A DNA stretch of 64,000 nt from Clostridia bacterium (GTDB taxonomy: Bacteria; Bacillota; Clostridia; Oscillospirales; CAG-272), in the NCBI GenBank assembly GCA_017453205.1, contig JAFTKO010000043.1, forward strand, positions 3,454 through 67,453. The letters are read 5' to 3'. Shown in pieces: positions 1 through 40,004 of this stretch (position 1 is its first letter; the number at the start of each line of letters is the position of its first letter). A program made the translations under genes and the position numbers. The notes under the pieces are model-generated. The model was not told where the DNA came from. It saw nothing but the letters and a program-made list of their open reading frames with translations, and ran no database searches.

Positions 1-1
1 T

Positions 2-1165
2 GAGGTGATTTCCAATAAGATTGAGCATCCCATCAACGCCGGCAACAAAAAGATTTTGATATTTACCGCTTTCTCCGATACCGCAAATTATCTCTATGAA
101 AACGTATCTGCATTTGTGAAAAATAAATATGGATTGAATACAGCGCAGATTACAGGAACGGTTGACGGCAAAACAACCATCCCGCGCTTCTCGGCAACGC
201 TTAATAACGTGCTGACCTATTTCTCCCCTATATCAAAGGACAAGCAGGTGCTGATGCCCAATAATAACGATAGCATTGATGTGCTGATCGCTACCGACTG
301 TATTTCCGAAGGTCAAAATCTGCAGGACTGCGATTACTGTATCAACTACGATATCCATTGGAATCCCGTTCGTATCATTCAGCGCTTTGGTCGAATCGAC
401 CGTATCGGATCAAAGAATGCTCATATTCAGCTTGTGAACTTCTGGCCAAATGTAACGCTTGACGATTACATCAATCTCAAGAGCCGCGTTGAGACTCGAA
501 TGAAGATTACGGTAATGACTTCTACGGGTGATGATGATCTCATCAATGCAGAGGAAAAGGGCGACCTTGAATACCGTAAAGCACAACTAAAACGACTTCA
601 GGAAGAGGTCGTAGATATTGAGGAAATGTCCAGCGGTATTTCTATTATGGACCTGGGGCTTAACGAATTTCGCCTTGATCTTCTGTCTTATACAAAGAAC
701 CACGGCGATCTTGACCACGTTCCATTCGGCATGAACGCAGTCGTTCCCGCAAGTGAGGATATGCCCGCAGGCGTGATATTCGTTCTAAAAAACCGCACCA
801 ATGCCGTCAATATCGGACATCAGAATCGCCTGCATCCGTTCTATATGGTGTATGTGGCAGAGGACGGTTCGGTGATTTGCGACCATCTTTCTCCCAAAGA
901 ACTGCTCGATAAAATGCGCTATCTTTGTAAGGACAAGACCTCGCCCTACGCCGAACTTTGCGCTGCGTTTAACCGTGAGACACGTGATGGCAAGGATATG
1001 AGAGTGTGCTCCAAGCTTCTTGGTGATGCGATACACTCTATCATTCACGTCAAGGAAGAAAGCGACATCAACAGTTTCCTCGGAGGTGAGCAGATCAGCT
1101 TTGCTGAGGGCGGCATTTCAGGGCTTGACGATTTTGAACTCATCTGTTTCTTAGTAGTAAAATAA
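2..1165 (+). CDS. SNF2-family helicase, C-terminal part (5' end outside window)
   Basis: The frame is open to the window edge. Helicase C-terminal motifs: KILIFTAFSDTANYL, IDVLIATDCISEGQNLQ, NYDIHWNPVRIIQRFGRIDRIGS (motif VI, QRxGRxxRxG type). Confidence 0.8.
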   Translation, partial: EVISNKIEHPINAGNKKILIFTAFSDTANYLYENVSAFVKNKYGLNTAQITGTVDGKTTIPRFSATLNNVLTYFSPISKDKQVLMPNNNDSIDVLIATDCISEGQNLQDCDYCINYDIHWNPVRIIQRFGRIDRIGSKNAHIQLVNFWPNVTLDDYINLKSRVETRMKITVMTSTGDDDLINAEEKGDLEYRKAQLKRLQEEVVDIEEMSSGISIMDLGLNEFRLDLLSYTKNHGDLDHVPFGMNAVVPASEDMPAGVIFVLKNRTNAVNIGHQNRLHPFYMVYVAEDGSVICDHLSPKELLDKMRYLCKDKTSPYAELCAAFNRETRDGKDMRVCSKLLGDAIHSIIHVKEESDINSFLGGEQISFAEGGISGLDDFELICFLVVK

Positions 1166-1175
1166 AGGAGTTGCT

Positions 1176-1481
1176 ATGACAAACGATACTATAATAACAA
1201 CAGTTTTAGAATATTTAAAGCAACGCCACCATCTTACCGATTTGGAAAAATCCATAATCGAAACCGCCAACGAGCTATCAAAGTATCCTTTTCAGCGTGA
1301 CAGTGCCGAGAAGAAGGTTGGAGAAAATTATTTGATGCATGGAGAACTGTTTGAAAATGAATTCAAGCATGCAAGTGTATTCGTCAAACCTCTTAATCAG
1401 TTGCCTGATGAAGATATTTTGGGAAATTTAAAGTTTCAGTTATTAAAAATGTGTGCAAAGGAACTGTCCAATCTACAATAA
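1176..1481 (+). CDS. Hypothetical 101-aa protein in the helicase/R-M operon
   Basis: ATG lies 7 nt after AAAGGAG and 10 nt after the helicase stop. No family recognised. Confidence 0.45.
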   Translation: MTNDTIITTVLEYLKQRHHLTDLEKSIIETANELSKYPFQRDSAEKKVGENYLMHGELFENEFKHASVFVKPLNQLPDEDILGNLKFQLLKMCAKELSNLQ

Positions 1482-1493
1482 GGAGGAATATCA

Positions 1494-2114
1494 GTGTTAG
1501 GTTTACCATCAAAAGCGAAAGTATCAAAAATGCTTCCCAAAAAAGCAATATACGAAAAATTCAATATGACCACAGCTCAAAAGGCAAAATTTGACGCTGA
1601 TATATCCCGTATCTCTATTGTTGGAGAGATTACACCGACAACTACGCAAATTGCGGCGGGAAAGGACATACAAGGCTTTTACATACTTCAAATCGTACTG
1701 AAGAACAAAAAGTACGACGAAAAGGCTATTGCGAGCCTCTCCAAACTGATACCTCAGCGTATGATTTTCCTTTTGCAGTATGAAAATCAGTATTGCCTTG
1801 CGTACTATCATAATCGCCTATACCACACGGAATGGGTGGAGCTTGATAGGCTTTTAGTGCCACTGTCGGGACTTGATCTTGACATTGTATGGGAAAACAC
1901 TATAAAACAGATTGTTTGCGGTGAAAATAGTGCTGCATGGGATGTCAATGCAACGATTGAGGAAAACATTGCTACGGAAACGCATCGGCGCAAATTGATA
2001 ACGGATATCGCATCGTTGGAAAAGAAGATACGTAGCGAGAAGCAACTAAATAGACAAATTCAGCTGAATGAAGAATTAAAACGCTTGAAAAAGGAGCTGG
2101 AGCAAATATCATGA
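1494..2114 (+). CDS. DUF4391-like protein
   Basis: GTG start after AAGGAGG. The N-terminal pattern LPKKAIYEKFNMT..QKAKFDADISRI, the size (~206 aa) and the position between an SNF2 helicase and a Mod-type methylase match my recollection of DUF4391 loci. Not verified by search. Confidence 0.5.
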   Translation: MLGLPSKAKVSKMLPKKAIYEKFNMTTAQKAKFDADISRISIVGEITPTTTQIAAGKDIQGFYILQIVLKNKKYDEKAIASLSKLIPQRMIFLLQYENQYCLAYYHNRLYHTEWVELDRLLVPLSGLDLDIVWENTIKQIVCGENSAAWDVNATIEENIATETHRRKLITDIASLEKKIRSEKQLNRQIQLNEELKRLKKELEQIS

Positions 2115-3268
2115 TTCAAGAATATCTTTTCATAAATAAGACAGAGAAAGAAAAAATCGAACAATATACTCCCGATGACATAAAAATTGAAATATATGAT
2201 ATTGATAATTCCGATTGCTGGATTGCAACATTTTCCTTGTCAAGCGAAAGTGAACCAAGCGCAAATACCTTATCGAAGGTTCACGAGTATATCATTGGAG
2301 AATTTCACCCCATTGTTTTGAGCAACGGTTGCTCTGCGTATTATAATAAAGCTCTTTTTCCCCATTTTAACGAATTCGAAAGAAAGCTGAGAAAATTGCT
2401 TTACCTAAAAAGTGCGCTGAGCAAGAATTCCAAAGATGCAGAGATCATAAAGGATTTGGAAAGCAAGGATTTCGGAGAAATATTTACTCTTTTGTTCTCG
2501 GATGCTCAGTTCGTACAAAATGCTAAGAAAACAATTGGCGATAAAACGTGGCAGTTTACCAAAGCTGAAATAGTTGCCGCGATAGAACAATTGTCCGAAC
2601 ATACTGTTTGGGATAACTTGATAGGAAAAGATGCGGTTCCACTGTTGCGTTCAGATTTTATTAAAGTTAAGAATTTTCGTAACGATGTAATGCATGCGCA
2701 TGCGATGAATGCCAAAAGTTATTCTTCTGCATTAAAGCTTATAAAAAAGATAAATGAGCAACTTGATACCGAAATTGGTAAAATTATTGTAGCCAAGGAG
2801 AATACGGTTCAACAAGAACCTGAACAGGATTTCAATACGGCTATGGGAGATGCTATAAAAGACATGGATTCTGTGCAGACCGCAAAAAGCTGGCAAGAAC
2901 AATTAGCAGAGCTGCAAGCTATGGCTTCTGGAATAAAGCCCCAGGGTATGATTGCGGCAATTGAAGAATACCGCCGTCTGACAAAATCGCCTGAAATAGT
3001 TGCTATGAGAGAATATCTTGTATCACCCGAATTTGCAGACATAACGAAACATGTTCAAGAAATATCAAAAATTCAATTGGATATTCCCCCAGTTGTTAAA
3101 GAGTTGCAGGAGCTTGCGGCATCAATGAAAGAATATAAAATCACTATTCCGCAGGAATTATTAGAATTGCAAAAATCTCTAAAAGATTTCAAACCGGATC
3201 CCGCATTAATTGAATTAGCCAAAAGCATGAAAGAAATAACAGGAGAAACAAAATCATGGAAAAAATGA
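2111..3268 (+). CDS. HEPN-domain protein (Swt1-like pattern) with a repeat-bearing helical C-terminal half
   Basis: ATGA overlap with the upstream stop. FERKLRKLLY helix plus an Rx4H motif, FRNDVMHAH (R at 2678-2680, H at 2693-2695). The C-terminus contains ELAASMKEY and ELAKSMKEI repeats. Confidence 0.5.
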   Translation: MIQEYLFINKTEKEKIEQYTPDDIKIEIYDIDNSDCWIATFSLSSESEPSANTLSKVHEYIIGEFHPIVLSNGCSAYYNKALFPHFNEFERKLRKLLYLKSALSKNSKDAEIIKDLESKDFGEIFTLLFSDAQFVQNAKKTIGDKTWQFTKAEIVAAIEQLSEHTVWDNLIGKDAVPLLRSDFIKVKNFRNDVMHAHAMNAKSYSSALKLIKKINEQLDTEIGKIIVAKENTVQQEPEQDFNTAMGDAIKDMDSVQTAKSWQEQLAELQAMASGIKPQGMIAAIEEYRRLTKSPEIVAMREYLVSPEFADITKHVQEISKIQLDIPPVVKELQELAASMKEYKITIPQELLELQKSLKDFKPDPALIELAKSMKEITGETKSWKK

Positions 3269-5256
3269 GAATGGAATCGGTAAATATGACCGAGCAGAAT
3301 ATAGAAAAGATCGGTGCGTTGTTCCCGAATTGTATCACGGAAACTGTAGATGAGAACGGGAAACTCAAGAAAGCAATCAATTTTGATATTCTCCGTCAGA
3401 TGCTGACCGAGGAAGCTATTGTGGGCGATGAAAAATATGAGTTTACATGGGTAGGTAAGAAAGCGGCAATTGTAGAAGCTAACAAGCCGATTCGTAAAAC
3501 TTTGCGCCCCTGTCCCGATGAAAGCAAAAATTGGGATTCGACCGAGAACCTATACATTGAGGGAGATAACCTTGAAGTGCTGAAGCTGTTGCAGGAAAGT
3601 TATCTTGGCAAGGTAAAGATGATCTATATTGATCCACCGTACAACACCGGAAATGATTTTGTATATAAAGACAACTATACAACGGACACCAATCAATACG
3701 CAGAACAAATCGGAGTTTTTAACGAGGATAACAATCGTTTGTTTCATAATACGGAAACCAATGGACGTTTTCATTCCGACTGGTGTAGTATGCTCTATGC
3801 CCGCCTACAACTTGCAAAGAATCTTTTAACTGATGATGGTGTTATTTTTATATCCATAGATGATAGTGAAATTCGAAATCTAAAGAATATTTGTGACGAG
3901 ATATTTGGAGGAGCGAACTTTATAGCTCAATTGATTTGGCAAAATAAAAAAGGCGGAGGCAATGATTCCACTCACATCGCAATTGAGCACGAATATATTT
4001 TGACTTATGCTAAAAACAAGGTCTTGTTAGGAGAGTTTTACGAATCCTATTCTGCAGAATATATAAAACGCTATAAAGAGGTTGATGATGTAGGTAGGTT
4101 TTATTGGGATACTTTTAAGCGTAAGGCTGGAAAACAATACTATCCGATTACATGTCCCGATGGAACTATCCTTGAATACGACGATGATGGCAACGCAATT
4201 AGTTGGCTAAGATCGAAAGAGCGATTTGATTCAGATATTAAAGCTGGGGAAATTAGAATCATTAAAGTAAACGACAAATGGTCGGTACAATTCAAGCAAC
4301 GAATTCCTTTAGGTAAAACCCCACGCAGTATTTTTACAACTAATACGGTTATTTCGGACAAAGGAACTACGAGTGCAGGAGCTAATGATGTATACGAATA
4401 CTTTAAGAAAGATGTCTTTTCCAATCCTAAGCCAGTTGCTTTGATTGAGTTTTTACTTGGCTTTGGGTTAGGCAAAGATGATATCGTATTGGACTTTTTT
4501 AGCGGATCGGGAACAACCGCTGAAGCGGTTATGCGTTCCAATCTTGATGGTAATCATAGAAAGTTTATCTTGGTTCAATTAGATGAAAACATCGATCCGA
4601 TGCTCAACAGTTCATCAGCAAATGCAAAGAGAGTGGCTGAGAATGCTGTGTCTGTTCTTGATCAGTTAAAACTACCACACACCATCCCTGAATTAGCCAA
4701 AATACGAATTAAAAGAGCTGGCGATAGCATAAAACAAAAATTGTTGGGAGAAGCTGCAATTAATCTGTTTGCAATAGACTTCAATCGTGATTTGGAACAA
4801 GAATTAAATCAAAGAACTGAATCAAAACTTGATTTGGCATCGGATTTAGACATCGGCTTCCGTGTGTTCAAGCTCGATGAATCCAACATGAATAGCGTAT
4901 ATTACAGTGCTGATGACTACTCCCAGGACATGCTCTCTATGTTGGAATCAAATATCAAGGACGACCGTACCGACCTCGATTTGCTGTTTGGTTGCTTACT
5001 TGAATGGGGATTGCCTCTTTCTCTGCCGTATAAATCCGAAAAAATTGAGGACTATACCGTTCACACCTATAATGACGGAGACCTGGTAGCATGCTTTGAG
5101 GAAAACATTCCCGAAACTGTCATTAAGGAGATCGCGAAGCGCAAACCTCTCCGCGCAGTCTTCCGCGACAGCAGCTTTGCCAATAGCCCTGCCAAGATCA
5201 ACGTAACAGAAATATTCAAGCTTCTTGCTCCCGATACAAGAGTGAAGGTGATCTGA
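3256..5256 (+). CDS. Site-specific DNA methyltransferase, Type III Mod-like (beta-class N6A/N4C)
   Basis: Motif IV, IYIDPPYNTGNDF, lies upstream of motif I, LDFFSGSGTTAEAV (beta-class order). GGAG sits 10 nt upstream of the ATG. The start overlaps the upstream gene; alternative in-frame ATGs run up to 3286. Confidence 0.85.
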   Translation: MEKMRMESVNMTEQNIEKIGALFPNCITETVDENGKLKKAINFDILRQMLTEEAIVGDEKYEFTWVGKKAAIVEANKPIRKTLRPCPDESKNWDSTENLYIEGDNLEVLKLLQESYLGKVKMIYIDPPYNTGNDFVYKDNYTTDTNQYAEQIGVFNEDNNRLFHNTETNGRFHSDWCSMLYARLQLAKNLLTDDGVIFISIDDSEIRNLKNICDEIFGGANFIAQLIWQNKKGGGNDSTHIAIEHEYILTYAKNKVLLGEFYESYSAEYIKRYKEVDDVGRFYWDTFKRKAGKQYYPITCPDGTILEYDDDGNAISWLRSKERFDSDIKAGEIRIIKVNDKWSVQFKQRIPLGKTPRSIFTTNTVISDKGTTSAGANDVYEYFKKDVFSNPKPVALIEFLLGFGLGKDDIVLDFFSGSGTTAEAVMRSNLDGNHRKFILVQLDENIDPMLNSSSANAKRVAENAVSVLDQLKLPHTIPELAKIRIKRAGDSIKQKLLGEAAINLFAIDFNRDLEQELNQRTESKLDLASDLDIGFRVFKLDESNMNSVYYSADDYSQDMLSMLESNIKDDRTDLDLLFGCLLEWGLPLSLPYKSEKIEDYTVHTYNDGDLVACFEENIPETVIKEIAKRKPLRAVFRDSSFANSPAKINVTEIFKLLAPDTRVKVI

Positions 5257-5822
5257 TGAAAAATCCATCATTAGCATATTTGGCGAAATCATTTTATAAT
5301 GCGTATATTGCCCTTGATCAGCTTGAACCGGATCAGGACGAATTGCTTTTGTATATCCCTAAATTGGTTAATGGAGCTTTTTCTGCTGAATTGATAATCA
5401 AGGCTATTTTAGTGGAACAAGATATACCTTATAATAACGAACATAATCTTAAAATTCTTTTTGAAAAACTTCCTATGGATTTTCAAAATAGAGTTTGGTA
5501 CTTTCTTGCTCAAAAAGCGCCGGAGTATGCAGATACGGAAAAGCGAGAAAACGAATTATTACTTATGTCAGATGCTTTTGTACAATGGAGATACTGTTAT
5601 GAAGGAAAGTTTGCACCTGCCTTCGATATACGATTTCTTTCGGCATTTACCAATGCACTTATTATTGTGATGTTCGAACTGGGATATAATGTGTTCTTTA
5701 CAAAATCAGAAATGGCACTTTCGCCAGAAGAATGTGCTGAGATTGATAAAAAAATTGAAAATAATCGCCGTGAATGTATGAAGAATAATGAAGCTAATAT
5801 AAAAAAGAAAAGCAGGAGGTGA
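5256..5822 (+). CDS. Small all-helical protein, possibly classical HEPN fold
   Basis: TGATG overlap with the mod stop. The pattern AELIIKAILVEQ..EHNLKILFEKL followed by FVQWRYCYE resembles PF05168-type HEPN (KALL..H.L..L ... RY). Weak, by eye only. Confidence 0.35.
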   Translation: MKNPSLAYLAKSFYNAYIALDQLEPDQDELLLYIPKLVNGAFSAELIIKAILVEQDIPYNNEHNLKILFEKLPMDFQNRVWYFLAQKAPEYADTEKRENELLLMSDAFVQWRYCYEGKFAPAFDIRFLSAFTNALIIVMFELGYNVFFTKSEMALSPEECAEIDKKIENNRRECMKNNEANIKKKSRR

Positions 5823-5827
5823 AAGAT

Positions 5828-8800
5828 ATGAAACTCCAATTTAAACATCAAAAATTCCAAGCTGACGCTGCCAAAGCGGTTGTAGATGTTTTTGCCGGAC
5901 AGCCCTATCTTACACCATCCTATATGATGGACAAAGGTAGCGTTTATCAGATGAAAACGACAGACGATGAAGATTTTACGGGCTGGCGCAATGAGCGTAT
6001 TGTGCCCGGACTTTCCGATGCCGTTATATTGGAGCATCTAAATAAAATACAACGTGCCAATCAAATTGCCCCCTCACTTCAGCTTGAAGGACGGTACAAT
6101 CTGACGATTGAGATGGAAACAGGCGTTGGCAAAACTTATACATACATCAAAACCATGTATGAGTTAAATAAGCATTACGGATGGAGCAAATTCATCGTGG
6201 TTGTTCCAAGCGTGGCAATCAGAGAGGGTGTTTACAAATCCTTTCAGGTAACGCAGGAGCATTTTGCGGAGGAATACGGTAAAAAAGTTCGCTTCTTTAT
6301 CTACAATTCTGCTCAGCTTACCGAGATTGACCGTTTTGCGTCTGACAACGGAATTAACGTTATGATCATCAATTCCCAAGCATTCAATGCTAAGGGCAAG
6401 GATGCGCGACGCATTTATATGAAGCTTGACGAATTCCGTTCCCGCCGTCCGATTGATATTATTGCAAAAACAAATCCTATTGTAATCATTGATGAGCCTC
6501 AGTCGGTAGAGGGAAAGCAAACCAAGGAGAGACTGAAGGAATTCAATCCTTTAATCACCTTGCGTTATTCGGCAACTCACAAATCCGACAGTATTTATAA
6601 TATGGTGTACCGTCTGGATGCAATGGAGGCGTACAACAAACGATTGGTAAAGAAGATTGCCGTAAAAGGAATTACCGAAACAGGAAGCACTGCAACCGAG
6701 GGATACGTATATCTTGAAAGCATCAATCTTTCAAAAGCAGATCCTACGGCAACCATTCAATTTGATGTCAAAGGTGCTTCGGGAATCAAGAAAAAGACGG
6801 CAACAGTCAATATCGGATATAATCTGTACGATCATTCAGGCAATCTTGATGAATACAAAAACAATTTTGTTGTTAAGGCAATTGACGGTCGTGACGATTC
6901 GGTGGAATTTCTTAATGGTATCAAAATTTACGCAGGCGATGTTATAGGCAAAGTAGCAGAGGATCAGTTACGCCGTATACAGATTCGAGAAACCATTCTA
7001 TCCCATATCGAGAGAGAAAGAAAGCTGTTCCACAAGGGGATCAAGGTGCTGTCTTTGTTCTTCATTGATGAAGTGCAAAAGTACAAGCAATATGATGAGG
7101 CAGGACAACCCTTTAATGGTATTTACGCTGATATGTTTGTTGAGGAATACAACGATATTCTCGGTAATATGCAGCTTCAGTTCGGTGACGATGATTATAT
7201 GCGTTATCTCAATGCGATTGATGCGAACGCTACACACGCCGGATACTTTTCTGTTGATAAAAAAGGACGTATGACCGATAGCAAATTCTCCGACAAAGCG
7301 GAAAAGACTTCAGATGATATTGATGCGTATGACCTAATCATGAAAAACAAGGAGTTGTTACTCGATCGTAATCCCAAGCGTTCACCGGTTCGCTTTATCT
7401 TCTCCCACTCTGCGTTAAGAGAAGGCTGGGATAATCCTAATGTATTCCAAATTTGCACGTTAAAGCAAAGTAGCAGCGAGGTGCGTAAGCGTCAGGAAGT
7501 CGGTCGCGGGTTGCGTCTTTGTGTCAATCAGGACGGAGAGCGTATGGATGCCAACGTGCTCGGAAACGATGTTCACAGCATCAATGTACTTACCGTTATT
7601 GCAAGTGAGAGCTACGACAAGTTTGCCAAAGGATTACAAGAGGAATTGGCAGATGCGGTGGCTAACCGTCCGCGCGCTGTTACCGTTGATTTGTTCAAGG
7701 GTAAGGTTATTAAGGATATCGACGGAAATGAAGTTGTTGTAGATGCAGACCTCGCTCAAGCTATTCACTATGAGATGATCATCAATGGCTATATCGACCG
7801 AAAAGGTAATCTTACGGATAAATATTACGAAGATAAGTCCAATTCGGAGATTAAGGTTGCGGAGGAGGTTGCCGATTGCACAGAATCAATCATTGATATC
7901 CTTGATTCTGTATATGACAGCAAGGCAATGCAGCCAGAAAATGCTCGAAGCAACAATGTGGAGTTACAGGTAAACAACGATAAGCTTCAAATGCAGGAAT
8001 TTAAAGCGCTATGGAAGCGTATCAATGCAAAATCCGTATACGTTGTGGATTTCGATACAGAGGAGCTGATTTCAAAAGCAATAGACAAATTGAATCTCAA
8101 GCTCAGAGTATCGAAGGTTTTCTTCAAAATCGAAAGCGGAGCAATGTCTGAAATAAAATCAAAAGAATCTTTACTGGAGGGATCGTCATTTACCAAAGAA
8201 AAATCCTCTATGTACAATCTTGAAAACACAATTCGCGCAAATCAAAGCGTTAAATACGATTTGGTTGGAAAGCTGGTAGAGGAAACAGGACTGACTCGCA
8301 AAGCGATCGTTGCTATTCTTCAAGGCATCGACAAAACTGTTTTTGATCAATTTAAGGACAATCCAGAAGATTTCATTATAAAAGCAGCTCAATTGATCAA
8401 TGACGAAAAGGCAACGGCAATTATTCAGCATATAACCTATAGTGTGATTGATGACTGCTATGATACGGATATCTTTACCGATGCTACAATCAAGGGTAAG
8501 CTTGGTGTAAATGCAATGAAAGCAAATAATCACCTGTACGATCATATCGTCTATGATTCTACTAATGAGCGCAATTTTGCAACAGAGCTTGATACAAATA
8601 CGGATGTTGCTGTATACGTTAAGCTTCCGAATAGCTTTTACATTACTACTCCGGTAGGCAAATATAACCCAGACTGGGCAATTGCCTTTTATGAGGGTAA
8701 GGTAAAGCACATCTATTTTGTAGCTGAAACCAAGGGTACAATGGATACAATGACATTTAACCACATTACTCCTGTTGAACAAGCAAAGATTGATTGTGCA

Positions 8801-8890
8801 AGAGAGCATTTTAAAGCTATTAGCGGTGATGATGTGGTGTATGATGTGGTCGATAGCTATCAAAGCCTGCTTGAAAAGGTTATGAAGTGA
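5828..8890 (+). CDS. Type III restriction enzyme Res subunit (helicase-nuclease)
   Basis: AGGAGG 8 nt upstream of the ATG. Walker A METGVGKTYT, motif II VIIDEPQSVEG, motif VI QEVGRGLRL. C-terminal PD-(D/E)xK-like YNPDWAIAF...YFVAETKG. Confidence 0.85.
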   Translation: MKLQFKHQKFQADAAKAVVDVFAGQPYLTPSYMMDKGSVYQMKTTDDEDFTGWRNERIVPGLSDAVILEHLNKIQRANQIAPSLQLEGRYNLTIEMETGVGKTYTYIKTMYELNKHYGWSKFIVVVPSVAIREGVYKSFQVTQEHFAEEYGKKVRFFIYNSAQLTEIDRFASDNGINVMIINSQAFNAKGKDARRIYMKLDEFRSRRPIDIIAKTNPIVIIDEPQSVEGKQTKERLKEFNPLITLRYSATHKSDSIYNMVYRLDAMEAYNKRLVKKIAVKGITETGSTATEGYVYLESINLSKADPTATIQFDVKGASGIKKKTATVNIGYNLYDHSGNLDEYKNNFVVKAIDGRDDSVEFLNGIKIYAGDVIGKVAEDQLRRIQIRETILSHIERERKLFHKGIKVLSLFFIDEVQKYKQYDEAGQPFNGIYADMFVEEYNDILGNMQLQFGDDDYMRYLNAIDANATHAGYFSVDKKGRMTDSKFSDKAEKTSDDIDAYDLIMKNKELLLDRNPKRSPVRFIFSHSALREGWDNPNVFQICTLKQSSSEVRKRQEVGRGLRLCVNQDGERMDANVLGNDVHSINVLTVIASESYDKFAKGLQEELADAVANRPRAVTVDLFKGKVIKDIDGNEVVVDADLAQAIHYEMIINGYIDRKGNLTDKYYEDKSNSEIKVAEEVADCTESIIDILDSVYDSKAMQPENARSNNVELQVNNDKLQMQEFKALWKRINAKSVYVVDFDTEELISKAIDKLNLKLRVSKVFFKIESGAMSEIKSKESLLEGSSFTKEKSSMYNLENTIRANQSVKYDLVGKLVEETGLTRKAIVAILQGIDKTVFDQFKDNPEDFIIKAAQLINDEKATAIIQHITYSVIDDCYDTDIFTDATIKGKLGVNAMKANNHLYDHIVYDSTNERNFATELDTNTDVAVYVKLPNSFYITTPVGKYNPDWAIAFYEGKVKHIYFVAETKGTMDTMTFNHITPVEQAKIDCAREHFKAISGDDVVYDVVDSYQSLLEKVMK

Positions 8891-8942
8891 TAAAACTATA
8901 ATTCTGAAATAATTGCAGTATAAACATACGGAGAAAAACAAT

Positions 8943-9725
8943 ATGAGTAACGATATAAATCAAGATCTTGCAAAGGAATTGGTTGCGCAGACCGCTGGTA
9001 AAACTTATGATGATATTGCGCATCCTACCGCTCACGCGACAGGGCAAATTATAAGTTTTATCCCAAGAACTATTAAGGTATGGCTTGGAAAGTGGGAAAA
9101 ATGGATTCTCAACGGTGAATATGCGATAAAAGAAACAGAGATACTTCTGGCAGAAAAGTTAAAACACATACCTGAAGAAAAAATCGTAGAGCCCGAGCCT
9201 TATGTTGCTGTGCCTGCATTGCAACAGTTGAGCTATAGTCTTGATAGTGAAGAGTTAAGAGAATTGTATGCAAATCTACTTGCTTCTTCGATGAATGCAG
9301 ACACAAAAGGAGATGTCCATCCCGCATTTGTGGATATTATTAAACAATTAGCTCCAGATGAAGCAAAATTGTTACGCTATTTTTCTGAACAAAAAGCTAT
9401 ACCTGCGGTAGAGGTTAGAAAACGGTCAGAAACTGGTACAGGTTTCAGAATTCTTGCAAAACTAAATTTTACAATGCCAGATGGATTGTTAGATGTTCCT
9501 CAAAATTATCTCGTGTATGTGGACAATTTAATTAGATTGCAACTTGTAGAAATTCCTGCAGATACACATTATTCCAACGAGTCTCTATATAAACCTCTTG
9601 AAAATCCAATTATCTATCTCGGTGCACCTACTGAACGATTAGTGTTTGAAAGGAAAATAGTTAAAATTTCTCCTTTTGGGAAGCTTTTTGTAAAAACATG
9701 CCAACCCAAACAAGAGGGAAAATAA
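8943..9725 (+). CDS. Abi-alpha / DUF4393-like abortive-infection protein
   Basis: GGAG upstream of the ATG. Pattern ...YDDIAHP..., VPALQQLSYSLDSEELRELYANLLASSMN, VHPAFVDIIKQLAPDEAKLL is typical of the Abi-alpha family as I recall it. Confidence 0.6.
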   Translation: MSNDINQDLAKELVAQTAGKTYDDIAHPTAHATGQIISFIPRTIKVWLGKWEKWILNGEYAIKETEILLAEKLKHIPEEKIVEPEPYVAVPALQQLSYSLDSEELRELYANLLASSMNADTKGDVHPAFVDIIKQLAPDEAKLLRYFSEQKAIPAVEVRKRSETGTGFRILAKLNFTMPDGLLDVPQNYLVYVDNLIRLQLVEIPADTHYSNESLYKPLENPIIYLGAPTERLVFERKIVKISPFGKLFVKTCQPKQEGK

Positions 9726-10096
9726 TGACAAAACAAGAATTTCTTGAATACTGCCTTGATACATACGGCACATCACCAGACTATCCGTTTGACGAGGATT
9801 TTGAGACGGCGGTGCTGAGGCACACGGACAATCGCAAGTGGTATGCGATTGTGATGAAGGTCTCGCGGTGCAAGTTTGGGTTTGACAGCGACGAGTTAAT
9901 CGACGTTGTCAATCTCAAGCTGCCGACGGAAATGTTCGGTTCGTTCGGTGCAGCGGACGGAGTATATCCAGCGTATCATATGAATAAGCTTCATTGGATT
10001 TCGGTGCTACTGCCCGATGCGCCTGAGGACGTGGTGCAGTTTCTCGTGAACGTAAGTTTTGAAGCCACAAAATCAGTTAAGAAAAGGGCAAAATAG
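9725..10096 (+). CDS. MmcQ/YjbR-family protein
   Basis: TAATG overlap with the upstream stop. YPFDEDFETAVLRHTDNRKWYAIVM and AYHMNKLHWISV are typical of YjbR-like proteins. It is more GC-rich than its neighbours. Confidence 0.6.
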   Translation: MTKQEFLEYCLDTYGTSPDYPFDEDFETAVLRHTDNRKWYAIVMKVSRCKFGFDSDELIDVVNLKLPTEMFGSFGAADGVYPAYHMNKLHWISVLLPDAPEDVVQFLVNVSFEATKSVKKRAK

Positions 10097-10159
10097 TCAT
10101 TTATCATACCGATTTTGAGAATGTCACAAAAAAGGCGGAAAAAAGGCAGAGATAAGCCG

Positions 10160-10188
10160 ATGACAAGTTAAAGTAAATATGTTATAAT
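10160..10188 (+). promoter_or_regulatory. Sigma-A-type promoter with extended -10
   Basis: -35 ATGACA (10160-10165), 17-nt spacer, TGT-TATAAT (-10 at 10183-10188). Confidence 0.5.
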
Positions 10189-10194
10189 GGTAAT

Positions 10195-10327
10195 GTCAAA
10201 AAGTGTAAGCTTTGATCGGGGCGTGGAGTTCCGGTTTTAGCTTGCACTTTTCATTTTGGCGCAGGCATAAATAAAGAGCCGCTATCAAGGCGTTTTCGTA
10301 ACGCTTTCGATAACGGCTTTTTCTTAT
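10195..10327 (+). ncRNA. Candidate small RNA (promoter, 12-bp stem-loop, intrinsic terminator); family unknown
   Basis: Sits downstream of the promoter above. The stem AAAGTGTAAGCT (10200-10211) pairs with AGCTTGCACTTT (10239-10250) with one G-U. A long imperfect hairpin at 10278-10317 is followed by TTTTTCTT. There is no SD-preceded ORF. Confidence 0.3.
10278..10327 (+). terminator. Rho-independent terminator
   Basis: Stem GCCGCTATCAAGGCG / CGCTTTCGATAACGGC (imperfect, ~15 bp) followed by a T-run. Confidence 0.5.
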
Positions 10328-10729
10328 GCAATTTTTGAAACGAAAAATAATTTTCAAAAATTTTCGGAAACGTGATGAGATTTTGCGTCAAAATTCCCAC
10401 TGTATTAGTAAAGACACTTAAAGCTCCTTTGAAAAATCAGAAAAGCTTGGGTGAAAAAATTCAATTTTTTTGAAAAAAGGTATAAAAATCGAGAGTTTTA
10501 AGTGTGGTTACAGTTGAAAGGCAAATAAATCTGCCTTTCTCCAAACTCAGATTTTAAGCTCGATCTGAGTGAGGTAATAGAAAGCTTGAAAGGAGGTGAA
10601 CACAGCAGTTTTCTATCAATACAGACATGAGTTTAAGACAAAGACAAGCATTAAAATTCCATCAGGACAAACGGTATCTGAATATCAAAAGAGCCACGCG
10701 TCAATAATTCAATGAAAGGAGTGAGCTGT

Positions 10730-10966
10730 ATGGAAATAAATGTTTATGACAACAAAAAATACGTATCGATATGGCTCACTCGCGGTGAGTCACGTGACAA
10801 TGCGCTTCGCGAAGATCTGAAACCGATCTACCAAAAATACAAGGCAATGGACTATAAGGTTGTGGTTTTTGAATCCGGCAACGGCGATCTGACTACGCTT
10901 ACCCAAAGTCTTCTTTCCTACAATCATCTGCTCAATGCACGCAAGGAGGCATCAGCGGATGGATAA
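10730..10966 (+). CDS. Hypothetical 78-aa protein immediately upstream of the recombinase (possible excision cofactor, speculative)
   Basis: AAAGGAG 7 nt upstream of the ATG at 10730. No family recognised. Confidence 0.45.
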   Translation: MEINVYDNKKYVSIWLTRGESRDNALREDLKPIYQKYKAMDYKVVVFESGNGDLTTLTQSLLSYNHLLNARKEASADG

Positions 10967-10994
10967 ACAATATTGTAAACATTTTTCTGTCATA

Positions 10995-11023
10995 TTGACT
11001 TGAAAACGAAAATATGTTACAAT
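10995..11023 (+). promoter_or_regulatory. Sigma-A-type promoter with extended -10 for the recombinase gene
   Basis: -35 TTGACT (10995-11000), 17-nt spacer, TGT-TACAAT (-10 at 11018-11023). AAAGGAG precedes the ATG at 11056. Confidence 0.5.
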
Positions 11024-11055
11024 GTTGTTAGCGATAACAAGAAAGGAGATATAAA

Positions 11056-13281
11056 ATGGTAGAAAGATACAAAATTGCCGCTTATACCCGTATTTCGGTG
11101 GACGTTGAGAAAGACACCGACAACACGAGTATCGAGAACCAAAAGGCAATTATTGCTGAGTATTGTAAGACTCACTTTCCAACGAGTACGGTGGATTACT
11201 ATGAAGACCGTGATAAATCCGGATATACGTTTAATCAGCGTCCGTGTTATTATTACGAGCTTCGTCCGAAGCTGATGAGCGGTGAGTATGATATTTTGAT
11301 CATCAAGGATCTGAGCCGTTTTTCTCGCCGTACAGGAAAGGGACTTGCCGAGTTTGAGGATCTTGTTGAAAATAATCTTCGCATCATTTCGATTGGTGAA
11401 TCCATCGATTACGAGGAGGGCAAGACCGACGACTGGTTGCAGATAAAGCTCTATTTCTTCGTTAACGAAATGCCCGTAACCGATGCCAGCAAAAAGGTAT
11501 TGGCAGTCATCGCAAACCGTCAGAAGAAGGGTGAGTGGGTCTGTTCGGTTCCTTACGGCTACGTAATGAAGAACACCAAAAAGATGATCTACGAGATTGA
11601 CGAGCCTGCCGCTGAGGTGGTTCGCGAGATCTTCCGCCTCTACATAAGTGGTTGGGGGTACAAGAGAATCGCCAATCATCTGACCGATAAAAAAATCCCA
11701 ACGCCGAGAATGTGCGAGAAAGCTCGCAAGGAGGCGATGGGAGATGAGTATCATGCGAAGGTTCGTGAGGAGTGGAGCATCATAACGGTATCGGAGATAC
11801 TCTGTAATGATTTCTATATCGGCACGCTTCGTTGCAAGAAATTTCAGCGGCAGAGGATCAATGGTCCCGACGTACCCGTTCACGAAAGCCAGCATATCGT
11901 TTTTGAGAACCATCATACGCCTATCGTTGACTCACGCACATTTATGACGGCGAAAGAGCAGCTGGAGCGCAGAAAGAAAGATCACTATCGCGGAGTAAAG
12001 AAAAACGAGAATAACTATTCCGGTTTCTTGATTTGCGGTGATTGCGGTTCTCCGATGTTTGCGAGAAATCGAGAGACTCTGAACGATGCCTACGTTTGCG
12101 GAAGGTATCACAGAAGAGGGCTGAAGGGATGCAAGGCTCACACGGTTAAGGTCGATTTTCTTGATGAAGTATTGAAGGAATATATCCGAAAGATCCGCGA
12201 TAATTCCGCTTCGATGATTGATGTTTTGAAGGATGCTATCAAAAACGAAGATCAGCGTACCGCTAACGGAAAGGAAGCCGCCGAGACTCTTATTGCGGAA
12301 ATTGAGGAGGAGCGCGACGTGCTTCGTTCCTTGGTAAAGCAAAGAGCCAAGGAGCTTGCAAGATCGGGCGAGGGATCCATTATGGTTGAATCCTACGATA
12401 TGGAGATTGACAGTTCCAGAAACCGTATTGAGGGCTTGCAAAATCAGCTTGAAATGGTGGCAAACACAACCAACACGATGGTTCGAGTTAATCGCGTTGC
12501 CAAGACCGTCATTGACGTTTTTAACGACATTTTGGAAAAGGATCACCTTGACAAGAACGATATCAACCTGATTATCAGTCACATGGTTGTTTTTGAGGAT
12601 CATATCGAGATCAAGCTGAAGGCGGAGATCGATGAGCTTCTAAGAACGGGTACGATCGAGCAGCTGAAACAGAATGAGGAAAGCGGAGCAGCCGTAAATT
12701 TTGACAAAGACACGGAAAATATCGAAAGCGCCGACGATTTCTATGAAATCGAGGCAGTACAGCGTGCAAATAAGCAGCATGACAAGGTTTTTCGTGTCAA
12801 TATTATCAGTGTGGGCGACCCGCTTGAAATCTATACTGACCGCGAAGGTGAAGTCATCTTTAAAAAATATTCTCCCATCGGCGAGCTCGCCTCGTTTGCG
12901 TCGCAATACGCCGAAACCCTGCACAAGACCTGTTCCCTTTCCGTCGTGATCTGTGACCGCGACGCCGTGATCGCTTGTGCGGGAGTCCCGCGCAAGGATT
13001 ACACCGACAAGGCACTCTCCGAGGAGCTGGAACAGATCATTGAGAACCGCTCTCTGTACTTCCACCGAGAGGACAGCGAGCCCATCCCCGTGCTTGCGGA
13101 AGGCGGAAGCTACTATGTCAGCTGTGCCATGCCCATCATCAGCGAGGGCGACATTGTCGGGTGCGTAGCGTCTGTTACCGATCAACCCGGAGCAGCGCGG
13201 CGCGAAGTTCCCGGAGGAGAAGTGGAAAGCAAGCTGATCCTTACCGCCGCCGGGTTTCTCGGCAGACAGCTGGAGAACTGA
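11056..13281 (+). CDS. Chimeric ORF: large serine recombinase (aa 1-586) read in frame into the spoVT 3' portion (aa 587-741)
   Basis: Resolvase N-terminus AAYTRISVD...IENQ, recombinase domain VPYGY, zinc ribbon CGDCGSPMF..YVCGRYHRRGLKGCKAH, then a coiled coil. From GDPLEIYTDREGEVIFKKYSPIGEL onwards it is colinear with SpoVT up to TAAGFLGRQLEN. Confidence 0.85.
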   Translation: MVERYKIAAYTRISVDVEKDTDNTSIENQKAIIAEYCKTHFPTSTVDYYEDRDKSGYTFNQRPCYYYELRPKLMSGEYDILIIKDLSRFSRRTGKGLAEFEDLVENNLRIISIGESIDYEEGKTDDWLQIKLYFFVNEMPVTDASKKVLAVIANRQKKGEWVCSVPYGYVMKNTKKMIYEIDEPAAEVVREIFRLYISGWGYKRIANHLTDKKIPTPRMCEKARKEAMGDEYHAKVREEWSIITVSEILCNDFYIGTLRCKKFQRQRINGPDVPVHESQHIVFENHHTPIVDSRTFMTAKEQLERRKKDHYRGVKKNENNYSGFLICGDCGSPMFARNRETLNDAYVCGRYHRRGLKGCKAHTVKVDFLDEVLKEYIRKIRDNSASMIDVLKDAIKNEDQRTANGKEAAETLIAEIEEERDVLRSLVKQRAKELARSGEGSIMVESYDMEIDSSRNRIEGLQNQLEMVANTTNTMVRVNRVAKTVIDVFNDILEKDHLDKNDINLIISHMVVFEDHIEIKLKAEIDELLRTGTIEQLKQNEESGAAVNFDKDTENIESADDFYEIEAVQRANKQHDKVFRVNIISVGDPLEIYTDREGEVIFKKYSPIGELASFASQYAETLHKTCSLSVVICDRDAVIACAGVPRKDYTDKALSEELEQIIENRSLYFHREDSEPIPVLAEGGSYYVSCAMPIISEGDIVGCVASVTDQPGAARREVPGGEVESKLILTAAGFLGRQLEN
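12814..13281 (+). pseudogene. spoVT: spoVT 3' fragment (lacks about the first 30 codons of the AbrB-type DNA-binding domain)
   Basis: 155 aa colinear with B. subtilis SpoVT, recalled from memory, from ...EGDPLEIFVDRDGEVILKKYSPISELGDFAKEYA... to ...TAAGFLARQMEQ. It has no start codon or RBS of its own. Confidence 0.8.
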
Positions 13282-13294
13282 CGTCAAAACAATA

Positions 13295-13329
13295 GGGACG
13301 CCTCGTTTTTGCGAAGCGCCCCTTATTTT
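13295..13329 (+). terminator. Rho-independent terminator after spoVT
   Basis: GGGACGCCTCG / CGAAGCGCCCC stem followed by TTATTTT. Confidence 0.5.
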
Positions 13330-13479
13330 CTGGAATAATTTTTATTCTTAATCAAAATTATCCATAGAATAAAGCTTTTGATACGGAGCATACTAACAAC
13401 AGCCGGAGAATTTTATTCAATATTCACGTCCTGCCGTTTCATATTCGCGGCAGGTCACAATCCGACTCGGAAAGGAGTT

Positions 13480-13701
13480 ATGGTTATGATCATGGATCGC
13501 ATTGCGCTCATCCTTACCATTCTCGGTGCCCTCAACTGGGGCAGCATCGGTCTGTTCCAATTCGACATCGTGGCATGGATCTGCGGCGGACAGGCCTCTC
13601 TGCTCAGCCGTATTATTTATACCGTGATCGCGCTTGCGGGTATCTGGTGTATTTCGCTCGTGTTCCGCGCCCGCGACAGCTTTGACCAGATTGAGGAATA
13701 A
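13480..13701 (+). CDS. DUF378-family small membrane protein
   Basis: DRIALILTILGALNWGSIGLFQFDIVAWICGG is typical of DUF378. GGAAAGGAG lies upstream. The start could be 13480, 13486 or 13492. Confidence 0.7.
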   Translation: MVMIMDRIALILTILGALNWGSIGLFQFDIVAWICGGQASLLSRIIYTVIALAGIWCISLVFRARDSFDQIEE

Positions 13702-27888: not shown

Positions 27889-29079
27889 TCACCACTCGAT
27901 CTCGATCACAAGCGGCTCCGCGGGATAATCATCCACAGGGATCCCTGTGATGCTGACGAACGGACCTGCGGCTCTGCCGCCCCAAATATACGCGGGGAGT
28001 GTCTCGTAACGCAACCCAAGCGTCTCTCCGCCGTTGAGCAACCTTGCGCACTTGGGTACCGAAGGCGCGTTGACAAAGTTGATCGCGGAAGAACTCGATC
28101 CCGCATAATAGCACAGATAGGTTTTTTCGTTCTTGCGGAAAGCAACAAAGGGATCCTTGCCCTTTGTCGTCAATCCCAAAGGATCCTTTTCGTGTCCCTC
28201 GAGTACGCCGTTCATGCGACAGTACCAGTCGCCCACGCGCTTGATGATCGAAGCACTCTTTTCGTCAATCTTTCCGTTTGCCATCGGTCCGACATTGAGC
28301 AAATAACTGCCGCCCATTGCCATGATCTTGCAGATGGAGCTTGTCAGATATCGGATCGAAAAATAGTCCTCGTTCTCGCGATATCCCCACGATTGCTCAC
28401 CTACCGACTCACACGCCTCGGTCATGCGCACAAAGCGATTCCCCTCGGGAACCTCGCGCTCGGGAGTTTCAAAGTCACCGTCATCATAGCCGCGATTGTT
28501 GATGAAAATACCCGGCTGCAGCTCTCTGATCAGCTCGTTCATCGATTGATCGATATACTTGGGAGGGATATCCCAAAAAAAGGTATAGATCTCGCCGTAG
28601 TTTGTCAACAACTCACGCACTTGATTTTTGACATACGCACGGTATTTTTCTCTGTCGCCCGCACTTGGATTGACCGCCTTCCATTGATGGGTAGAGTAGG
28701 AATTGTAGCCGTTTTCGTGGTGCCAATCGGGGTTGGAGTAGTAGAGAGAAAGCTTCATGCCATGCTTGCGGCAGGCATCGGCAAGCATTTTGAGCACATC
28801 CTTGCCATAGGGGGTATTCATAACATTGTAGTCGGTATACTTGGTATCCCACATGCAAAAGCCGTCGTGATGCTTGGTCGTAAAGCAGATGTACTTCATG
28901 CCTGCATTCTTTGCAAGCAATACCCATTCCTCGGGGTCGTACTCGGTTGGGTTGAACTGTCCTACCAGCTTGTCGTATTCCTCATGCGACATATCATTCC
29001 GTGCGATCACCTGCTCCTGCACACCCGTCAGCGCGTAGATGCCCCAGTGAATAAACATTCCGAATTTGTTGTTTTCCAT
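27889..29079 (-). CDS. GH29 alpha-L-fucosidase
   Basis: FGMFIHWGIYA, GMKYICFTTKHHDGFCMWDT. ATG at 29079 after GAGGGG. Confidence 0.9.
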   Translation of the reverse strand: MENNKFGMFIHWGIYALTGVQEQVIARNDMSHEEYDKLVGQFNPTEYDPEEWVLLAKNAGMKYICFTTKHHDGFCMWDTKYTDYNVMNTPYGKDVLKMLADACRKHGMKLSLYYSNPDWHHENGYNSYSTHQWKAVNPSAGDREKYRAYVKNQVRELLTNYGEIYTFFWDIPPKYIDQSMNELIRELQPGIFINNRGYDDGDFETPEREVPEGNRFVRMTEACESVGEQSWGYRENEDYFSIRYLTSSICKIMAMGGSYLLNVGPMANGKIDEKSASIIKRVGDWYCRMNGVLEGHEKDPLGLTTKGKDPFVAFRKNEKTYLCYYAGSSSSAINFVNAPSVPKCARLLNGGETLGLRYETLPAYIWGGRAAGPFVSITGIPVDDYPAEPLVIEIEW

Positions 29080-29203
29080 TGTATTCCCCTCAATTTTGTT
29101 TTCTGTTGGTTGCATTATAACACGGCGCGGAACAAAAGTCAATAAATTATCAACGCACTTTTTATAAAATATCAACTCAATTTTATAAATTTAGAATTTG
29201 TGA

Positions 29204-29632
29204 TTATTTAGAAAAATCAATTTCATACCGTGTGCCGTGTGAAAATAAAAGTCCATCGGTTAGTTTAATACAAAGAATACAAGTATTTATATCATCAAAA
29301 TTATTGTGACCGTTATCAATCCACTCGGAAAATGCCACTTTCATCTTTTTTGCGATGCGTGCATTTTCTGCTTTTCCAAAATAGCCTAAATTAATCCCTT
29401 TGCCATGTGCGGTAAACCAATCCCCCGATATCGCAACCGTAGGATTATGTTCGATTTGTCTCATTTTATTTGACAATCCATAAGTAAGCACATAAAAAGC
29501 ACCGTTGTCATAAAATGCGTTCACGTTACGGACATAAGGAACGTCATCAATTGTTGTTGCCAGTGCAATGATACAATCTTTGCCAAATCGGTCTATTAGT
29601 ATTGCTTCTGCCGCTTTTGATAATTTTTCCAT
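29204..29632 (-). CDS. Pyridoxamine 5'-phosphate oxidase-like FMN-binding protein
   Basis: Size and pattern (IIALATTIDDVPYVRNVNAFYDNGAFYVLT ... NPTVAISG). GGAGGT is the RBS. Confidence 0.5.
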   Translation of the reverse strand: MEKLSKAAEAILIDRFGKDCIIALATTIDDVPYVRNVNAFYDNGAFYVLTYGLSNKMRQIEHNPTVAISGDWFTAHGKGINLGYFGKAENARIAKKMKVAFSEWIDNGHNNFDDINTCILCIKLTDGLLFSHGTRYEIDFSK

Positions 29633-29753
29633 TGGTGTTACCTCCACAAAGCCAAATTTACCGTCAGTTCATTATATCACAAAATGATAAAACTATAATT
29701 CAGCACCTAATCTCACCGACAAATTGGAATTTGTCGCTCCGAATAAATACATT

Positions 29754-30500
29754 TTACAGTTCAAAATAATGCATCGTAGATTTCAAAACAAATCCGCTTG
29801 AGACAGCCAATTTATTAGATGTTATGTTGTCAGCATTACATACCCAGTAGACAGATTGATTCTTTTCTTGACAGTGTAACAAAAAGGCATTTACCATTTT
29901 CTTGGCATATCCTAATCCGCGATACTGCTCATCTATCCATATGTTAATCCCATGACTGTTGTTATTACTGTATTCACTTAAACAATACCCGGATACGACA
30001 CCATCCATAACCAAAGCCAACCCAAATCCGTTTTGATAAAAATCTTCCACATCCGTATAAGAATACAATTCACTTATAACCAATTCAGTATTAGGCAAAT
30101 TATTCTCCATAAGGTTTCGCGTAATTTGAACTACACATTCGCTATCGTCATTAAGTTCGGTAATATTTTTATTATCGAACTGATATAAATTGAGATATCT
30201 GTCTTTCAACTTGTCTGAAAGTGTACTTTTAATAAAAGAACGCCATCTGTCATCCGGATAATAGAGATATAGTGGTTTATCATAATCATCTAATATTGAA
30301 ATAACTTTTTCACCATTCGCTTTTGAAAAATCTCCGCCAATAAAAGCACTTAGTCCCCATGATATCATGGCACTGCCATTCTCAACTAAAAAATGAACCT
30401 TACCCTGTTTTCTCAACAGAAGTGATTGTATTAAATTTTGGTAAATATAATAACTGTATAACGAAGAAATATCTGTTGTGAATTTATCATTATCTCTCAT
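29754..30500 (-). CDS. GNAT-family N-acetyltransferase
   Basis: C-terminal acetyl-CoA motif region YRGLGYAKKMVNAFLLHC. Very AT-rich gene. Confidence 0.6.
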   Translation of the reverse strand: MRDNDKFTTDISSLYSYYIYQNLIQSLLLRKQGKVHFLVENGSAMISWGLSAFIGGDFSKANGEKVISILDDYDKPLYLYYPDDRWRSFIKSTLSDKLKDRYLNLYQFDNKNITELNDDSECVVQITRNLMENNLPNTELVISELYSYTDVEDFYQNGFGLALVMDGVVSGYCLSEYSNNNSHGINIWIDEQYRGLGYAKKMVNAFLLHCQEKNQSVYWVCNADNITSNKLAVSSGFVLKSTMHYFEL

Positions 30501-30646
30501 TATCTTTCCCCTTTATGACCCGGTCGCTTTCTTTTCCCTTGGAGCAACAAATTCAAGTTTATCTGTTAGTTACATTCTACCATAAAATCATAGAAAAGTA
30601 AATAAGAGAGTCCAATTTTTGCAATTTTATATCACCCCGTTTCATT

Positions 30647-32009: not shown

Positions 32010-32035
32010 CCGCAAATTGCAATAGCAATTTGCGG
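32010..32035. terminator. Perfect 11-bp hairpin downstream of the HAD gene
   Basis: CCGCAAATTGC aata GCAATTTGCGG. Confidence 0.4.
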
Positions 32036-32044
32036 CAAATAAGT

Positions 32045-32686: not shown

Positions 32687-32708
32687 TCTTTTCCTCCTTT
32701 TATGAACT

Positions 32709-33323: not shown

Positions 33324-33377
33324 ACGTGATCTCGCCTTATATACAGCATCTGTCCGTTCGTAAAATCATAGGTACTT

Positions 33378-39996: not shown

Positions 39997-40004
39997 TGCT
40001 TGTA

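Follow-up and report, generated by a model that had tools for sequence, protein, structure and literature searches.

A defence island splitting spoVT in a Clostridia bacterium, and a conserved small gene with a candidate forespore-type promoter beside its recombinase

The 64,000-nt stretch of Clostridia bacterium DNA analysed here (the window; contig JAFTKO010000043.1 of assembly GCA_017453205.1) contains, next to host DNA, the right end of an integrative defence island of about 20.3 kb, inserted by a large serine recombinase (LSR) at a 10-bp core lying in codons 31–33 of the sporulation regulator gene spoVT. The recombinase gene is accompanied by a conserved small gene, and we tentatively favour a reading in which the element would be excised in the forespore with the help of the small protein, rebuilding spoVT in the compartment that transcribes it.

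A spoVT gene split by an integrated element

A single 741-aa open reading frame (ORF) of the plus strand (11056..13281) consists of an LSR part followed in frame by SpoVT residues 31–185. The Pfam families Resolvase, Recombinase and Zn_ribbon_recom (PF00239, PF07508, PF13408) cover its first ~586 aa, so that catalytic, recombinase and zinc ribbon domains lie within one protein of more than 450 aa, as in other LSRs; the family alignment shows no variation at R12 and S14, and the nearest solved relative is SPbeta SprA/YokA (9DXH, E 3.5e-19). The remainder was assigned to SpoVT_C (aa 610–740, E 1.4e-36), and a tblastn search with Bacillus subtilis SpoVT aligned residues 31–178 with 12814..13278 (E 7e-36), with no match to residues 1–30 anywhere in the window. 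The first 33 codons of spoVT are located about 20.3 kb upstream of the 3' part, beyond the window edge. They were found on a longer contig of the same organism (L003, 167 kb), where MKATGIVRRIDDLGRVVIPKEIRRTMRIREGDP is followed by element sequence, the 5' fragment ending as a 61-aa ORF that runs into element DNA; this contig holds the whole element, from the attL core at 1302 through attR. The identical fusion ORF is present on at least six metagenome contigs of different samples, whose names point to rumen or gut, and in an NCBI metagenome-assembled genome (MAG) labelled 'Clostridia bacterium' (MBQ7348116.1). Since the fusion was assembled independently in these contigs, and sequence was obtained for the two junctions and for the empty site, an assembly artefact is ruled out. 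The fusion protein also appears under a second, close accession (MBQ7348247.1), apparently from the same MAG, while the 61-aa fragment has a single accession, which points to a contig duplicated or forked in this bin (strain mixture).

Joining the two halves in silico at GGGCGACCCG produced a 185-aa protein identical to the intact allele encoded on two further contigs, L093 and L094, and this exact sequence is present in the protein collection. Residues 1–184 of the rebuilt protein align with residues 1–177 of the solved B. subtilis SpoVT (2W1T, E 4e-51), and the intact allele has an AbrB-type N-terminal domain and a GAF-like SpoVT_C (PF04014 and PF15714), collinear with B. subtilis SpoVT. Both contigs share the gene order GH38, spoVT, DUF378, Lipase_3, holB and PSP1, with flanks 99.1–99.2% identical to those of the window, and lack the element, the empty attB being CGCGAGGGCGACCCGCTTGAAATC. 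The element is therefore polymorphic within one species. The proposal of the initial annotation, that a recombinase is fused to a 3' fragment of spoVT, is thus confirmed by tblastn, Pfam, the 5' part on L003, the two junctions and the empty site. On L093, holB (DNA polymerase III delta') is called as two ORFs of 135 and 208 aa (11865..12895) and in the window as a single 343-aa ORF; the split is a frameshift or sequencing error.

The 10-bp core overlaps the G-D-P codons 31–33 of spoVT (12814..12822). At attL the host side ends in CGCGAGGGCGACCCG and the element begins with ACACTGACAATGTTGACA, and at attR the element ends in TGTCAATATTATCAGTGT and the host side resumes with GGGCGACCCGCTTGAA. 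The rebuilt attP, TCAGTGT-GGGCGACCCG-ACACTGA, is a short att site of LSR type, with imperfect inverted repeats around a small core. It falls within the recombinase ORF, and the free form of the enzyme is predicted to end in a 28-residue tail encoded by the element, versus 155 SpoVT residues when integrated.

On the element side G+C is 38–46%, against 50–57% for the host DNA to the right. In addition to the cargo listed in Table 1, the element encodes a DUF4391 protein, an ATPase_2/DUF234 protein and a DUF6100 protein. Among the 14 cargo proteins scanned, none matched phage structural, packaging or lysis families (nine matched defence or other families and five nothing), and a collection of 50,697 phage records held no close relative, the best matches being unannotated fragments with 50% identity. 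A prophage was thus ruled out, the 'viral' contigs that hold relatives being integrated copies that include SpoVT_C. Pfam and PADLOC scans detected no relaxase among the proteins of this element.

Recombinase family and conserved small gene

The recombinase belongs to a large, horizontally mobile family that uses the spoVT site in Oscillospirales, i.e. rumen and gut Clostridia; the family and locus counts given here are lower bounds, and the occupancy figures are rough. Among the 120 nearest recombinase clusters (63–97% identity), 113 encode proteins of ~740 aa with the SpoVT_C fusion and one a truncated fusion, and the other six (P0161, P0165, P0170, P0218, P0221 and P0241) end in the reverse-complement translation of spoVT codons 1–33. 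The latter occupy the same spoVT site in reverse orientation, which implies a flipped central dinucleotide in their attP. Because these six clusters get a different tail, a functional requirement for the SpoVT_C fusion was judged unlikely, and the in-frame fusion is probably a by-product. Species-representative genomes hold at least 80 loci with recombinases 51–89% identical, and SpoVT residues ~28–31 to 184 follow directly in 76 of the 80. Cultured carriers are Ruminococcus flavefaciens 007c and ATCC 19208, Ruminococcus sp. Marseille-P6503 and Hominimerdicola aceti; intact spoVT genes are found in R. flavefaciens Y1 and R. albus 8. In some relatives (P0215 type) a NikA-like protein and a Relaxase adjoin the same module, and these elements look mobilizable. 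Two un-integrated copies (L176 and L281) have a recombinase gene whose 3' end contains an intact palindromic attP. In L176, from a Defluviitaleaceae MAG, the small gene and recombinase module (4867..6918) is surrounded by common metabolic genes, for an aldolase, an oxidoreductase, DUF885 and NamZ, with no spoVT near; this copy is solo or in some other way not integrated. In a relative from an R. flavefaciens MAG (L135, 10001..11869) the recombinase ends in NGDAVLFNLFENSY, neither SpoVT_C nor the usual free-form tail.

Recombinase and host sequences have different histories. Recombinases 92–97% identical to that of the window are fused to SpoVT_C parts 60–75% identical to the closest of the intact SpoVT clusters nearest the window's. 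Among 71 loci, 44 pairs combine recombinases at least 90% identical with SpoVT_C parts less than 80% identical, the extreme pair (L105 and L106) having 99.8% versus 58.8%; in the reverse case, hosts with SpoVT_C 86–89% identical carry recombinases only ~52% identical. Between R. flavefaciens 007c and ATCC 19208 (L147 and L148), omega is 0.06 for SpoVT_C, and the recombinase dS of 0.69 is below the host dS of 1.1–1.5. The insertions are mostly recent, and undamaged halves therefore say little on selection while the gene is split; near-identical recombinases in distant hosts led us to drop intact halves as evidence for such selection.

The initial annotation missed a conserved small gene, with a forespore-type promoter candidate, beside the recombinase. 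Elements of R. flavefaciens that differ in cargo have in common only ~370 bp upstream of the recombinase, and the small protein is encoded in this segment. The small protein has ~65–85 aa in the family, with the motif ..Y.E.WLT..E....KV.VF.SG..L and a median isoelectric point of 5.8. A strict pattern places its gene immediately before that of the recombinase in at least 47 of 80 family loci, and the protein family has at least 920 representatives in a 50% cluster library. The protein matched nothing in Pfam or PADLOC, and its structure model, of moderate quality (pLDDT 76), gave no fold match in the PDB with E below 0.001.

Between the small gene and the recombinase lies the sigma-A-type promoter of the latter, whose extended −10 pattern TGnTAnAAT occurs in 43 of 47 family loci, versus 1.4 in shuffled sequences. 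Upstream of the small gene, unsupervised Gibbs sampling of 35 non-redundant sequences returned TG[AC]ATA-N17-CA[AT]AAT at −49..−61 in about 28 of them, and TG[AC]ATA is found at −66..−44 in 19 of the 35, compared with 1.4% of the 588 upstream regions of control genes in these loci. These sequences were also scored with matrices trained on mapped promoters of Clostridioides difficile, a distant Clostridium. With the sigma-F/G matrix, 23 of the 35 small-gene upstreams exceeded the 95th percentile of the controls and seven the 99th; the 95th percentile was exceeded by two with sigma-E and three with sigma-K, and by none of 35 recombinase upstreams with sigma-F/G. A matrix derived from the spoVT promoters of this clade returned meaningless negative scores, because conserved spacer columns dominated it, and the C. 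difficile matrices were used instead. The un-integrated copy L176 has the same small-gene promoter. In the window the promoter candidate includes GAATATC-N13-GTCAATAAT, and the Ruminococcus elements have a G run ahead of the −10 box (GGGCATAAT), a feature tied to sigma-F in a study of C. difficile (PMC3789822). Together, these patterns suggest that the small gene carries a candidate forespore-type promoter, conserved in the family.

The 5' leader of the recombinase gene, in the window (11024..11055) and in seven relatives (L132, L135, L141, L147, L148, L170 and L180), repeatedly contains (A)ACATTG(T/A), as do the attP arms (CAATGTTGACA / TGTCAATATT); autoregulation through binding of the recombinase to this leader is possible. 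Elsewhere in the element (10160..10325), about 100 nt separate a strong sigma-A-like promoter (ATGACA-17-TATAAT with TG) from a long hairpin and T run, with no ORF; the element may encode a small RNA there, and a search of 9900..13500 against Rfam gave no match. The host DNA of the window contains no further sporulation genes and instead has genes of carbohydrate metabolism. A long minus-strand block at 29000..47000 is lower in G+C (36–46%) than the DNA around it. Its products include GDPD, GDSL lipase, M20 peptidase and HAD proteins besides others of unknown kind, and it may represent another acquired island or a gene cluster for a surface polymer.

Table 1. Features of the element and of the spoVT junction, in window coordinates
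Feature	Position	Strand	Basis or remark
Right-hand 12.8 kb of the ~20.3-kb integrated element	1..12812	+	Left 7.5 kb and attL beyond window start
SNF2/HKD-type helicase, C-terminal part of 1072 aa (cargo)	5..1165	+	Pfam Helicase_C; PADLOC HKD+Snf2 3e-57; full length in L003
Type III restriction-modification methyltransferase (cargo)	3256..5256	+	Pfam N6_N4_Mtase; PADLOC MTase_III 1e-205
Type III restriction enzyme (cargo)	5819..8890	+	Pfam ResIII and RE_endonuc; PADLOC REase_III 3e-284
Abi_alpha / PDC-S47 abortive-infection-type protein (cargo)	8913..9725	+	Pfam Abi_alpha 2e-57; PADLOC PDC-S47 3e-82
Forespore-type (sigma-F/G-like) promoter candidate	10680..10708	+	GAATA-N17-CAATAAT, 22 nt upstream of small gene
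Conserved small gene, 78 aa, candidate recombination directionality factor	10730..10966	+	Homologues directly upstream of recombinase
Sigma-A-type promoter of recombinase, extended −10	10995..11023	+	TTGACT-17-(TG)TACAAT
LSR (aa 1–586) and SpoVT residues 31–185 in one 741-aa ORF	11056..13281	+	Pfam; 9DXH match
attR element-side arm TGTCAATATTATCAGTGT	12795..12812		Imperfect inverted repeat of left-end arm ACACTGACAATGTTGACA
10-bp core GGGCGACCCG	12813..12822		Common to attL, attR and empty attB
spoVT 3' part, codons 31–185 and stop	12814..13281	+	tblastn; Pfam; 2W1T alignment
Hairpin terminator downstream of spoVT	13294..13323		

Candidate forespore excision and competing explanations

The spoVT gene of C. 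difficile is sigma-F- and sigma-G-dependent, and a mutant forms no heat-resistant spores (PMC3789822). The intact spoVT genes of the clade studied here are preceded by a conserved forespore-type sequence, G[TC]ATA-N17-[GA]A[TC]A[CA]TA: 59 of 78 upstreams reach at least 11/12 on a B. subtilis-style consensus, versus ~9 in shuffles, and on the C. difficile sigma-F/G matrix 30 of 76 score higher than the 95th percentile of the controls. The gene is also under strong purifying selection in the clade (omega 0.04–0.14). We infer that spoVT is a forespore gene here as well. The characterised gene-intervening elements of sporulation (skin, SPbeta, vfbin, vrin, gin and yin) all occupy mother-cell genes (PMC4191935, PMC5595907, PMC10747680), and the full-text literature searches gave no paper in which spoVT is connected with an intervening element, attB, integration or a recombinase target. 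The puzzle raised by the initial annotation, that known elements sit in mother-cell genes and spoVT would act in the forespore, is thus a real one in view of this literature (with PMC3789822) and of the clade promoter. The sigma-A-like promoter that the same annotation had described for the recombinase is there; as an argument against developmental control it is weak, because the recombinase of the C. difficile skin element (skinCd) is constitutive too, the small directionality factor being the regulated part (PMC5025042).

The reading that we favour, with somewhat less than even confidence, is a forespore-timed excision that would rebuild spoVT, with the small protein as directionality factor. 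The small protein would be made only in the forespore and, together with the constitutive, sigma-A-driven recombinase, would drive the attL x attR reaction, so that spoVT would be whole again in the very compartment where it is transcribed. As attP lies inside the 3' end of the recombinase gene, the excised circle would regain a complete, sigma-A-driven recombinase gene, and it would not be diluted in the non-dividing spore. At germination the factor would be gone, and the default attP x attB reaction could re-insert the circle. Excision in an inherited genome would cure the lineage of the element, and a forespore promoter would therefore make evolutionary sense only if the circle is kept and re-integrated. 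Such re-integration after the spore stage is plausible, since integration is the default without the factor, the recombinase of the circle would be complete and the spore does not divide, and yet we hold it to be doubtful. Forespore excision with later re-integration would be the leading candidate among the alternatives listed in the initial annotation, and a constitutive recombinase paired with a small compartment-specific factor is an arrangement established experimentally for skinCd (PMC5025042). The full sequence of events, a germ-line rearrangement once per spore generation in many gut and rumen Clostridia, with sigma-F/G-dependent excision, a circle carried through dormancy and re-integration at germination, is rather unlikely in our estimation.

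Several observations weigh against forespore excision and re-integration. No similarity was detected between the small protein and known directionality factors, a group that lacks a common fold anyway, and the small-gene promoter in the window scores 12.0 with the C. difficile sigma-F/G matrix, barely over the control 95th percentile of 11.7. The exact attP junction of the element is absent from the assembled metagenome contigs, and the excised-form recombinase from the protein collection; a degenerate attP pattern returned 19 chance matches in the contigs and one true attP, that of a distant relative. Transfer between hosts is rampant and occupancy is low (1 of 80 and 3 of 80 of the SpoVT loci nearest each query are split), both of which fit often-lost elements and neither of which calls for regulated excision. 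One relative (L180) has GGCGCC in its attL core (543..641) and GGCGAC at attR (11700..11740), and its spoVT 5' fragment reads RMGAP, not the invariant REGDP; it may be a locked-in copy no longer able to excise, with a decaying spoVT, or the product of a MAG error. Sporulation is undocumented in these hosts, and R. flavefaciens is described as non-sporulating.

Plain insertional inactivation is a possible explanation, although one we consider doubtful: spoVT would be a conserved, vegetatively dispensable landing site, carriers would sporulate poorly or not at all, and the element would persist by transfer and the benefit of its defence genes, the intact alleles belonging to strains never invaded or cured by chance. 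The presence and absence of the element between flanks 99.2% identical, the low occupancy among species representatives, the 44 pairs with similar recombinases in hosts with divergent SpoVT_C, the relaxase of some relatives and the apparently locked-in, decaying L180 are all in agreement with it, and recent insertion alone accounts for the undamaged halves. It gives, however, no account of a small gene with a forespore-type promoter kept beside recombinases that are only 51–89% identical, each element in a lineage spread by spores would be a dead end, and no frameshifted or truncated SpoVT_C was seen in the 76 loci and 113 clusters. An improbable alternative is stochastic or growth-phase excision in vegetative cells, giving mixed populations of which only the element-free cells finish sporulating, as a population-level on/off switch of the kind reported for the yabG element of C. 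botulinum. The constitutive promoter of the recombinase and the two alleles in one species speak for such a switch, and populations in which integrated and excised forms coexist have a precedent (PMC10747680); however, LSRs need a directionality factor to excise (PMC5025042), the sole conserved candidate for this factor has a forespore-type rather than a sigma-A-type promoter, no sample showed both forms together, and the attP junction was missing from the metagenome contigs.

It is very improbable that the insertion is free of cost, whether through a second functional spoVT or a sporulation programme no longer used, the two escapes under which the initial annotation would have called the split trivial. 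The hosts are uncultured or described as non-sporulating, which speaks for this explanation, but no second copy was found in a non-exhaustive set of 160 SpoVT loci from relatives, each from a different genome bin, and the omega values of the clade and the conserved forespore-type promoter of spoVT argue for its use, as does the omega of the SpoVT_C pair from the two R. flavefaciens strains. Moreover, all five substitutions between the split allele of the window and the intact one are synonymous, and these escapes are left unsupported.

Relation to known elements and significance

As in the characterised intervening elements, a sporulation coding sequence is interrupted (after spoVT codon 33), precise excision would rebuild the ORF and the element has its own recombinase at one end. 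The target is, however, forespore-type instead of mother-cell-expressed, and the element is therefore not a strict member of that class. A close parallel is skinCd, the sigK-intervening element of C. difficile, in which the recombinase CD1231 is constitutive and the 72-aa factor CD1234, under sigma-E/SpoIIID control, confines excision to the mother cell (PMC5025042). Both systems combine an LSR with a sigma-A promoter, a nearby small acidic protein of unknown family (72 aa there, 65–85 aa here) with a sporulation-type promoter, a candidate one here, and a split sporulation regulator whose ORF is restored by precise excision, here in silico. They differ in that skinCd has a mother-cell target and is excised in a dying cell, whereas here both target and candidate factor appear forespore-type and the genome is inherited; skinCd contains phage remnants and our element a defence island, and the small proteins have no sequence similarity. 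The SPbeta element in spsM of B. subtilis offers, besides the nearest solved recombinase SprA, a short core that lies between inverted repeats within a coding sequence, and a small directionality factor under sporulation control, SprB (PMC4191935, PMC5499854), to which the candidate small factor with its forespore-type promoter would correspond. In contrast, SPbeta is an active phage whose excision is mother-cell-specific by Southern blots, while here there are no phage genes and the predicted compartment is the forespore.

If the model is right, the element also resembles cases of active lysogeny, in which a gene is transiently restored and the element re-integrates. In the Listeria comK prophage phi10403S and in Streptococcus pyogenes SpyCIM1 in mutL, the gene is restored transiently and the element re-integrates without being lost; the concept was reportedly reviewed by Feiner and colleagues in 2015 (cited in PMC10747680). 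Those systems use tyrosine integrases in growing cells, whereas the present one would operate in the spore germ line, where re-integration is purely inferred, and we know of nothing comparable for a spore germ line. The position of attP has counterparts too: in Myxococcus phage Mx8 (intP) and in Sulfolobus SSV1 it lies inside the element's own integrase gene. In these as in our element, integration alters the 3' end of the recombinase ORF, here by 155 SpoVT residues versus a short element-encoded tail, but the former enzymes are tyrosine recombinases and ours is an LSR.

If true, forespore excision of this element would break the accepted rule that developmentally excised elements of spore formers occupy mother-cell genes, a rule explained by the discarding of that cell, and a new solution, re-integration, would be required to keep the element in the lineage. 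It would be a forespore counterpart of skin and SPbeta, safeguarded by re-integration where those elements rely on a disposable mother cell. The analysis also names an unannotated protein family of at least 920 clusters as candidate directionality factors and offers recombinase/att pairs with a defined 10-bp core. The question, which matters for how abundant uncultured Clostridia of gut and rumen sporulate and are transmitted, is made directly testable by the four cultured carrier strains.

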